Shown one piece after another: positions 1,633-3,390 of a stretch of DNA of 32,000 nt. The notes under the pieces were generated by a model. The model was not told the DNA's origin and did not search any database. It saw only the letters and a program-made list of their open reading frames with translations. The stretch covers positions 630,001 through 662,000 of the forward strand of contig CP001848.1 of the NCBI GenBank assembly GCA_000025185.1. The letters run 5' to 3'. This DNA comes from Pirellula staleyi DSM 6068. GTDB taxonomy: Bacteria > Planctomycetota > Planctomycetia > Pirellulales > Pirellulaceae. Made by a program: the position numbers and the translations under genes. How positions within the stretch are numbered: the stretch's first letter is position 1; every line of letters begins with the position of its first letter.

Positions 1633-3390
1633 GTGCGTCGCCAGCGCGGGGCCATTTTCGAGCGCCTGGTGGGGCTCGAAACCGAGTATGCTCTCCTGCG
1701 ACCAGCCACCGCCGATAACGATGGCTATAGTCGTTTCGAGGTGTTTCGCGCGCTCGTAGCCTCCCTTCGCACACGCATCCCTGCCGTCGCAGCACAGCAC
1801 TTCAAAGAAGGTGTGTTTCACGCTGCTGGTGGTGCCGTTTGGTTCGAAACCGAGCGGATCAGTAGCGGGGGAGGCCTTGTCGAAGGTTCCTCTCCCGAGT
1901 GTCGCGGGCCGATGCAGGTGCTCATCTGGCAGAAGGCTCAAGATAAACTGCTCGCAGCTGCCCTCGACGATGCCACCGATGGTGAAACCAAGCTGATCAA
2001 GAACGATCGCGATGCCTTCGGCAACGTTTACGGCGCTCAGGAAAACTACGAAGCGACACTCGCCACCGGCTGGCGACTACTCGCTTGGCGGGCATCGCTC
2101 ATTGCGATTTTTCCGATCGTGCTACTCACCTGGCTATCGCTTTGGATCATCACCGGCGCGGTGATGCTGTATGCCCTCGCCGCAGTACTCGTCTACCTGG
2201 CACTCGAACGCCTGGTACGACGACCCCAGCGACTCGCGATGCTGCTGTTTGGCTGCTCGTTCGAGCGTCTTGGGGAAGCTGGTCCCACCGGTCCGCAGTG
2301 GATGGAACAATTCCTCTCGGTGGTGGTCCGCGTGATCGCCGCGCCACTGGCAGGTGTGCTGCTGGCCATTATCGCCGTCACTTCGTTCTGTGAACATCGC
2401 AAAAAGCTGCTTCCGTTTCTTGCCAGCCGTGCTGTGATTGGTGGCAGTGGCATGATCGATGATCAGGGGCGTTTTTTGCTTGCCGACAAAGCTACCGCGA
2501 TGAACTGCTCGATCGGCTTTGGTGGACTCCTGGGTGATCGACCGATCTTCACCTTCGGCCACTTCTACAAGACGATTTTTTCCGACGCGTGGATGGCACC
2601 CGGCGAGTATTTCCGCCTCTTCTCCCCACGTCAGCGATTGCAAATTGGACTCGGCGATTCGAACCTCTGCGATGTCTCGCAATACCTGCGCGTCGGCACC
2701 ACGCTGCTGGTGCTCGACATGATTGAAGCAGGCGAGGCAACCAACTTGCCGCAGCTGCGCAGCCCCCTCCGGGCGTGTCGCAAATTCACCTCCGATCCGA
2801 CACTCCAGGCAACCGCGCCGCTGCGAGGTGGTGGCGAGATCACTGCGCTCGAAGTGCAGCGAGCCTACCTCGAAGCATGTCGCCAATTCCTCGCTAAGCA
2901 CCCCGAAGCGCCGGAAGAAGCGTTTCAAGTCCTCTCGCTGTGGGACGAAACACTGAAGCAACTCGCTGGCGATCGCCAAGCACTGGTCGGGTCGATCGAC
3001 TGGGTCACTAAACAGCGGCTCATCGACGAGAACACTGCCGGCGTTTCACCCAAAGTGCTCAAAAAAATCGACATCAAGTATCACGAACTTTCGAGCGAAG
3101 GTTATTTCCAAAAACTGCTCGCCGTCGGGCTGATCCGGCAGCTCACCACCCCTGCTGAGGTCGAACGCGCGATGCGGTGCCCTCCGAGCGGAACACCGGC
3201 AGCGGTGCGTGGTCAGTTCATTCGCGAGTTCGCAAGTGGCGATAAACCGATCACCGCCAATTGGCACTATGTGTTGCTTGGTCGAGGTCGGACTCGCCGC
3301 ATCATCAAACTCTCCGACTATCGACCGCTGGCCATCGCTCGCCCACAGCGTCCCCGTGCACAAGCAGCGCAAGATATCGACACCGAATAG
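1633..3390 (+). CDS. PafA/Dop-family (Pup-ligase / depupylase fold) enzyme with an internal ~110-aa hydrophobic insertion
   Basis: 585 aa. The blocks ERLVGLETEYA, LIKNDRDAFGNVYGAQENY, LLPFLASRAVIGGSG, LQIGLGDSNLCDVSQYLRVGTTLLVLDMIEAGE, GSIDWVTKQRL and IDIKYHEL match the conserved blocks of mycobacterial PafA as I recall them. Residues ~144-256 (WRLLAWRASLIAIFPIVLLTWLSLWIITGAVMLYALAAVLVYLAL ... FLSVVVRVIAAPLAGVLLAIIAVTSF) are an insertion absent from PafA. Confidence 0.85.
   Translation: MRRQRGAIFERLVGLETEYALLRPATADNDGYSRFEVFRALVASLRTRIPAVAAQHFKEGVFHAAGGAVWFETERISSGGGLVEGSSPECRGPMQVLIWQKAQDKLLAAALDDATDGETKLIKNDRDAFGNVYGAQENYEATLATGWRLLAWRASLIAIFPIVLLTWLSLWIITGAVMLYALAAVLVYLALERLVRRPQRLAMLLFGCSFERLGEAGPTGPQWMEQFLSVVVRVIAAPLAGVLLAIIAVTSFCEHRKKLLPFLASRAVIGGSGMIDDQGRFLLADKATAMNCSIGFGGLLGDRPIFTFGHFYKTIFSDAWMAPGEYFRLFSPRQRLQIGLGDSNLCDVSQYLRVGTTLLVLDMIEAGEATNLPQLRSPLRACRKFTSDPTLQATAPLRGGGEITALEVQRAYLEACRQFLAKHPEAPEEAFQVLSLWDETLKQLAGDRQALVGSIDWVTKQRLIDENTAGVSPKVLKKIDIKYHELSSEGYFQKLLAVGLIRQLTTPAEVERAMRCPPSGTPAAVRGQFIREFASGDKPITANWHYVLLGRGRTRRIIKLSDYRPLAIARPQRPRAQAAQDIDTE

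Follow-up and report, generated by a model that had tools for sequence, protein, structure and literature searches.

Pupylation is understood almost wholly from the actinobacterial system, in which it is a cytosolic path that leads to the proteasome. Its two enzymes of the Pup-ligase fold, PafA and Dop, are soluble proteins. Here we describe a homolog of PafA and Dop that is encoded in a stretch of 32,000 nucleotides from the planctomycete Pirellula staleyi DSM 6068 (GCA_000025185.1, contig CP001848.1, positions 630,001 to 662,000 of the forward strand). This whole stretch is called the window, and all coordinates count from its first letter. The gene (1633-3390, + strand), whose product we refer to as the ligase after its fold, carries a long hydrophobic insertion in the catalytic domain (2062-2400) and is preceded directly by a small open reading frame (ORF) that ends in Gly-Gly-Glu (1454-1630, + strand). 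The explanation that we regard as probable is that the two genes specify a membrane-tethered, proteasome-independent Pup-like ligase and its GGE partner.

A membrane-anchored homolog of the Pup ligase is already known as a prediction. Iyer, Burroughs and Aravind (2008, Biol Direct; PMC2588565) described, for Pup ligases of planctomycetes and Plesiocystis, transmembrane (TM) segments inserted behind core strand 4, and proposed in silico that membrane proteins are pupylated. The same paper stated that the genes for Pup and Pup ligase of Plesiocystis and Rhodopirellula are unlinked to proteasome genes. An earlier note on this DNA, written from the letters alone, knew of no described membrane-integrated enzyme of this fold, and in this respect it was mistaken, given the 2008 paper. 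The P. staleyi locus resembles the TM-inserted ligases of Rhodopirellula baltica and Plesiocystis pacifica (PMC2588565) in having a hydrophobic insertion right after core strand 4, which is the strand with the ENY motif, a small neighbouring gene whose product ends in G[EQ] and no linkage to the proteasome. It shares with R. baltica its place in the Planctomycetes, and the role proposed for the TM-inserted ligases is likewise that of an enzyme anchored on the cytoplasmic side of the membrane that tags membrane proteins (PMC2588565); the R. baltica protein was compared through its published description. Iyer et al. (PMC2588565) counted four TM segments, whereas the AlphaFold2 models of this study contain two long arms and a short tip helix. 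They also reported a linked membrane-protein gene, whereas no such conserved neighbour was found here.

The ligase gene is an intact single ORF, and its product of 585 amino acids is identical (100%, full length) to the annotated 'DUF245 domain protein' of Pirellula staleyi DSM 6068. Residues 11-547 match the Pfam family PF03136 (Pup_ligase) with 327.2 bits (cut-off 25, E 2e-97) over positions 1-440 of the 441 in the profile, and a Pfam scan of the ligase found no domain other than Pup_ligase. The PafA equivalog TIGR03686 and the Dop equivalog TIGR03688 both scored 169.5 bits, below their cut-offs of 551.3 and 492.3, respectively; the protein is neither PafA proper nor Dop proper and is a third lineage of the Pup-ligase fold. 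A profile of the ligase family matched Dop (structures 4B0R, 5LRT and 7OXV) better than PafA (4B0T and 4BJR), at 216 against 145 bits, and Dop was also the best structural match. The ligase shares with PafA the glutamine synthetase (GS)-like fold, the GhExE, KNxxD and ENY motifs, the C-terminal helical domain, the loss of most of the Dop-loop and a partner with a terminal Glu. Planctomycete genomes carry a single copy of the homolog (Elharar et al., 2020). No second Pup-ligase paralog was found by phmmer against all ORFs of the window.

The in-frame translation of 2062-2400 (+ strand) corresponds to residues 144-256 of the ligase, 113 residues that run from ATGWRL to FCEHR. Hidden Markov model alignment placed residues 84-145 onto Dop 99-164 and residues 250-560 onto Dop 164-472 of the solved structures, and residues 9-140 and 254-275 onto C. 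glutamicum PafA 10-135 and 144-165, respectively. ENY (137-139) and LLPFL (259-263) are separated by 119 residues in the ligase, compared with about 12 in PafA and Dop, so that the estimate by eye in the earlier note, about 115 against about 14, was essentially right. The net insertion is about 105-107 amino acids and begins at most 6 residues past ENY. A wider family set comprised 133 full-length representatives of clusters formed at 50% identity, the most distant of them about 30% identical to the query. All 133 carried the insertion, with a length of 91-231 amino acids and a median of 114. The same kind of insertion was present in the genome loci that we compared, which are the best 80 of 315 stretches encoding a relative in a collection with one genome per species. 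A profile search for distant members gave matches mostly in Planctomycetota.

The Dop-loop, a known soluble loop which the earlier note had raised against its own reading, does not account for the insertion. The Dop-loop of about 40 amino acids lies near the N-terminus of Dop, between the GhExE strand and the strand of the catalytic Asp, and maps N-terminal to ligase residue 84, and the insertion lies more than 55 residues further downstream. The distance from the GhExE strand to the PE[YG] strand is about 74 residues in the ligase, about 97 in Dop and about 60 in PafA, which leaves the ligase with about 23 residues fewer than Dop in this region. Elharar et al. (2020) likewise obtained only a partial alignment of the planctomycete homolog with the Dop-loop. 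A disrupted or mis-assembled gene had been the other concern. Nothing spoke in favour of an artefact. The chance that the insertion stems from mis-assembly, from a frameshift in a pseudogene or from a mobile element or one of the intein kind is negligible, given the intact ORF, the match to an annotated protein of a complete genome, the presence of the insertion throughout the family and the confident structure models. In particular, frameshift and mis-assembly were ruled out because more than 100 homologs have a similar length of 577-606 amino acids.

Two blocks of the ligase are strongly hydrophobic. Kyte-Doolittle averages over 19 residues exceeded 1.6 only at residues 147-195 and 225-255. 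A Hessa-type free-energy sum was negative for segments inside 154-191, about +0.2 for 234-252, and had a minimum of +8.8 outside 140-260. The first block comprises about 38-39 uncharged residues, is long enough to count as two helices and has free-energy minima at 155-174 and 168-191; the second comprises 26 residues. From the N-terminal side, the region begins with a juxtamembrane helix, GWRLLAWRASLIA (2068-2106, + strand; residues 146-158; AlphaFold2 and alignment columns), in which W152 and R153 are conserved and which is followed by a kink at P161. The outgoing hydrophobic arm, helix A (2110-2208, + strand; residues 160-192; AlphaFold2 and free-energy sum), lies almost entirely within the uncharged residues 154-191. 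The distal turn region (2209-2295, + strand; residues 193-221; AlphaFold2 and alignment A1) consists of the basic turn RLVRRPQR, a helix at 198-206 and a loop. The return arm, helix B (2296-2382, + strand; residues 222-250), is hydrophobic over 227-252, has a conserved P238 and continues into the core helix 253-265.

The properties of these helices are kept across the family. Helix A has a mean hydrophobicity of 0.7-0.8 and has no polar face, because its hydrophobic moment is only 0.01-0.10. Among the 133 representatives, positions 154-191 are nearly free of charge and helix A consists to 78% of the residues AVILMFWC; the insertion helices range from 69 to 78%, and the majority residue of a column occurs in 34% of the sequences, compared with 51-54% in the catalytic core. 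Composition that is kept while sequence varies is the usual pattern expected of lipid-facing helices. R153 is found in 87% and P161 in 110 of the 133 representatives, and P238, R256 and R257 are also conserved. The net charge averages +4.5 in the flanks and +0.6 in the distal loop, the density of Lys and Arg in the C-terminal flank is twice the background, and Trp/Tyr belts and Arg/Lys clusters mark the ends of the hydrophobic helices. The distal loop varies from 13 to 147 amino acids in the wider family. Two motifs in it, LLFGC and PTGPxW[LM]E (2233-2307, + strand; residues 201-225), are near-invariant in Pirellulaceae relatives of at least 50% identity and are lost in the wider family; they may serve a lineage-specific function beyond the membrane.

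AlphaFold2 was run on the ligase with the alignment of 133 sequences and gave a model with a predicted local distance difference test (pLDDT) score of 93.3 and a predicted TM-score (pTM) of 0.92. The insertion was modelled as helices 146-158, 160-192 (continuous, pLDDT 95-97), 198-206 and 222-250, followed by the core helix 253-265; pLDDT decreased to 75 at 211-220 and below 50 at 566-572. In Foldseek searches, target-normalised TM-scores were 0.76-0.84 for Dop and 0.69-0.73 for PafA, with 0.79-0.82 (E about 1e-25) for the Dop structures 4b0r, 5lrt and 7oyh and 0.73 for PafA 4bjr. In the model the split GS-like fold is reassembled with the insertion protruding, which answers the question that the earlier note had left to structure modelling. 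That note had also argued that the catalytic halves can meet on one side only if the insertion makes an even number of passes or is re-entrant, and the out-and-back hairpin of the model has such a course. Its count of at least three stretches of TM length is defensible by hydropathy, which allows two to three segments, but the structure models show two long arms. Membrane tethering of the homolog, the centre of that note, is supported as a prediction by the conserved hydrophobic hairpin, the uncharged stretch and the positive flanks, and we consider the ligase a putative membrane protein on these grounds of sequence and model.

A second model, of the divergent member P0154 with an insertion of 92 amino acids, reached pLDDT 94.5 and assigned an unbroken helix to 146-226 (81 residues). 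This helical run must fold back on itself, because both of its ends join the core. An unbroken helix of 81 residues at this place is geometrically impossible unless it hides a tight turn. Mean-field covariation in 343 family sequences (effective number 247) gave the pair 155-246 as by far the strongest, and 9 of the 24 top pairs lay on the antiparallel band i+j = 389-401; these data are consistent with pairing of the outgoing arm to the return arm but lack the strength to tell two passes from four. The geometry of the hairpin was read from the secondary structure of the models and from this weak covariation. The models favour a two-armed, out-and-back hairpin with two putative passes. The best reading of them is that residues of about 153-174 and 227-250 form the best-matched hydrophobic pair, beyond which lie a hydrophobic extension (175-192) and the variable distal loop. 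A two-pass hairpin, four segments and a hairpin with a re-entrant helix would all leave both catalytic halves in the cytoplasm.

The catalytic domain is divided by the insertion. The N-terminal half of the GS-like domain (1633-2067, + strand; residues 1-145; alignment to Dop and PafA) contains GhExE, E72, PEC, KNDRD and ENY, and the C-terminal remainder (2389-3387, + strand; residues 253-585) contains the second catalytic half, the C-terminal helical domain and a basic disordered tail from about residue 566. Conserved columns were read from alignment A1, which holds close relatives, and alignment A2. G14-L-E16-T-E18 (GhExE), K123-N-D-R-D127, E137-N-Y139 and R266 vary little or not at all in either of them; E72 is invariant, and PEC occupies 88-90. 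Judged by these residues, the ligase appears to be catalytically intact. A second family-specific element, GHFYKTIFSDAWMAPGEYFRLF (2557-2622, + strand; residues 309-330; Dop alignment and AlphaFold2), consists of two aromatic-rich helices (309-321 and 323-330), and G309, H310 and K313 in it are invariant in A1. Dop has the shorter loop TRDEPHADPEKY at this site, and the ligase also differs from PafA in having the two helices for the loop that corresponds to TRDEPH in Dop. It might bind the membrane as an interfacial surface, or it might be an altered substrate loop.

The small ORF upstream of the ligase gene (1454-1630, + strand) was read directly from the sequence and is apparently unannotated. 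It encodes about 58 amino acids and ends in ENYLAESIVPFGGE; translation probably begins at a GTG at 1454, behind the sequence AAGGTGA, and 2 nt separate the stop codon from the start of the ligase gene. In 72 of 79 related Pirellulales loci the ligase gene is preceded, at a distance of no more than 150 nt, by a small ORF that ends in YL.ET.VP[HYF]GGE, and the small upstream ORFs group by BLAST in 78 loci. The conserved motif is D[SA]...[YF]L.ET.VP[HYF]GGE, and next to family members with 37-39% identity to the ligase the upstream ORF ends in RYP.ET.VPEGGE. The small ORF resembles Pup in its size of 50-90 amino acids, its low-complexity N-terminal half, its C-terminal G-G-[EQ] and its position adjoining the ligase gene, and it differs from Pup in lacking a match to Pup models and in having a conserved motif of its own. 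The grounds for kinship to Pup are the size of the small ORF, its position and its terminal GGE. The small protein needs no deamidation because it already ends in Gly-Gly-Glu, which would make that activity, unlike in the case of Dop, superfluous for the ligase.

The mechanism that we propose starts from the insertion. The hydrophobic hairpin of about 105 residues would project from the reassembled catalytic domain into the cytoplasmic membrane, and the two catalytic halves with the ATP site and the Pup-binding groove would be kept in the cytoplasm near the membrane surface. There the ligase would act with the small GGE protein encoded directly upstream. The terminal glutamate of the small protein would be activated in an ATP-dependent step, and the activated protein would then be ligated to lysines of membrane or membrane-proximal proteins, which are the presumed targets. 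The resulting tag would be proteasome-independent and presumably regulatory. Because the homolog is single-copy and its partner already terminates in GGE, ligase activity is the logical expectation, and we infer that the protein is a ligase rather than a hydrolase.

Several observations weigh against this explanation. A full-text literature search returned no experimental report of membrane localisation or conjugation, and only Iyer et al. (2008), reviews by Cavalier-Smith and Elharar et al. (2020) were on the topic. The distal loop of the P. staleyi protein contains five arginines. By the free-energy sum helix B is a borderline case, and across the wider family the first half of this helix is amphipathic and Arg is frequent at 248. 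The arm of helix A, at 33-45 residues, is longer than one membrane pass needs. The scores of the ligase for the PafA and Dop equivalogs are far under their cut-offs, and the family is closer to Dop, the hydrolase, than to PafA in the bit scores given above. In the profile alignment, the catalytic Asp of PafA in 'LYLDV', on the strand before PE[YG], falls on the family-conserved Glu72 of WFETE, after which come 6 inserted residues that PafA lacks (1846-1866, + strand; residues 72-78). The position thus remains acidic without being Asp; we take this Asp to be D57 of PafA and D95 of Dop in mycobacterial numbering. The Pfam and NCBIfam libraries, which should include Pup models, gave no Pup match for five members of the small-ORF family at E up to 10. 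A profile of the small ORF scored no actinobacterial Pup sequence (Mtb, Msm and Cgl) above shuffled sequences. The protein might be anchored in the membrane and yet be no protein ligase. It might instead hydrolyse or process the small protein in the manner of Dop, or join GGE to a non-protein amine such as a membrane lipid headgroup. The preference of the family profile for Dop and the Glu in place of the catalytic Asp fit this idea, and the positions that discriminate PafA from Dop are mixed, with EGSSPE in the ligase and EGATPE in the family, against EYSTPE in Dop of A. cellulolyticus and EYATAE in PafA. The departure of the insertion right after the ENY active-site strand also probably places the active site near the membrane. 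However, the family is single-copy, and a hydrolase would lack a substrate if there were no ligase. In every locus examined the partner is encoded with GGE, ready to ligate and with no need of a deamidase, and the residues for ATP/Mg binding and the acyl phosphate are conserved. We judge this alternative unlikely. Attachment of the GGE partner to an amine of a membrane lipid (phosphatidylethanolamine or ornithine lipid), instead of or besides lysines, came into consideration because the active site comes right behind the ENY strand and would be set against the bilayer by the hairpin, and it is a distant prospect. If true, it would be a bacterial Pup-fold analogue of the lipidation of Atg8 with phosphatidylethanolamine.

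Other alternatives concern the hairpin itself. The insertion might be a real membrane anchor with a different topology, either four segments (about 154-173, 175-192, 199-215 and 227-250) or a hairpin of TM1 and TM2, after which would come a loop in the cytoplasm and then a last helix that has its kink at P238 and is either re-entrant or interfacial. Iyer et al. (2008, PMC2588565) counted four segments, and the uncharged block of about 39 residues with its two free-energy minima has room for two passes. The turn RLVRRPQR after residue 192 would then be cytoplasmic, in agreement with the positive-inside rule, and Pro238 is conserved midway in the last helix. Four segments are difficult to reconcile with the AlphaFold2 model, in which 160-192 is unbroken with no break at 174-175, where the family has no conserved Gly or Pro. 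The third segment would have only about 10 hydrophobic residues (LAMLLFGCSF) before ERLGEAG and is variable and often hydrophilic in the family, insertions of 92 amino acids are too short for four TM helices plus loops, and covariation gave no band at i+j of about 349. A topology other than the two-pass hairpin is thus a minority view, one that we hold to be a real if limited possibility. It is very improbable that the hairpin lies outside the membrane, buried as a stalk by which a soluble or peripheral enzyme oligomerises or binds a partner. Arms of 33-45 residues do exceed the need of a bilayer, but 38 uncharged residues in a row with a moment near zero leave no polar face, and in the stalk of a soluble coiled coil, polar and apolar residues would be arranged in heptads. 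The Trp/Tyr belts and Arg/Lys clusters at the helix ends, and the conserved composition with variable sequence, also argue for lipid contact.

A membrane-tethered, proteasome-independent Pup-like system would widen the view of pupylation. The planctomycete clade has previously been used as an outgroup to PafA and Dop, and the present family bears on the origin of pupylation. A milder form of the reading with lipid attachment, which shares its low probability, is that this large planctomycete family may preserve an ancestral, proteasome-independent and membrane-localised form of the modification. The contribution of this study to the earlier prediction is confirmation and scale, with at least 133 clusters at 50% identity that have the insertion and 315 stretches that encode a relative. 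New here are the two-gene core, the partner motif ending in VP[HYF]GGE that is missed by Pup models, the change of Asp to Glu, and the support of models for two arms over four TM segments.

The gene neighbourhood was compared across the 80 loci. Genes for PafA occur in linkage with those for the proteasome and Mpa. The ligase gene differs in this respect, and no proteasome, Mpa/ARC or other protease partner was found among the Pfam-scanned ORFs of the 32-kb window. The conserved unit consists of two genes, because apart from the small GGE ORF no neighbour of at least 90 amino acids was kept in more than 9 of the 80 loci, the window included. An apparent downstream cluster of 53 loci was rejected, as it consisted of chained low-complexity and shadow ORFs. 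An adjoining membrane-protein gene was not conserved across the 80 loci; the neighbours in the window encode an MsrP-like protein and a secreted hypothetical protein. A pattern scan for promoters and terminators over 780-3600 gave no more sites than chance. Upstream of the small ORF, about 660 nt without a convincing gene (792-1453) separate it from a divergent gene on the minus strand, which extends past the start of the window and whose product bears a signal peptide and a region rich in Pro and Gln. Downstream, 124 nt after the ligase gene, a protein of 220 amino acids with a molybdopterin-binding oxidoreductase domain (Oxidored_molyb, MsrP/YedY-like) is encoded at 3514-4176 (+ strand). It lacks both an obvious signal peptide and an MsrQ-like partner, and in 7 loci, with the window counted, the ligase gene is followed by a homolog of it. 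In 3 of 3 loci of members with 37-39% identity (L081 6801-7490, L082 3771-4460 and L083 2995-3684), a gene for a 229-residue DUF2461 protein follows the ligase gene on the same strand, and this gene is absent beside the ligase gene of the window. Further downstream, an N6/N4 DNA methyltransferase (PF01555) is encoded at 7137-8024 (+ strand), with no restriction enzyme among the neighbouring ORFs scanned against Pfam. A cluster resembling type IV pilus or type II secretion genes occupies 23421-31660 and encodes three ATPases of the T2SSE family (two with MshEN), a T2SSF platform protein and one protein that has a methylation motif at its N-terminus, and a TadG-like von Willebrand factor A (VWA) protein is encoded further upstream of this cluster at 9483-11291 (- strand).

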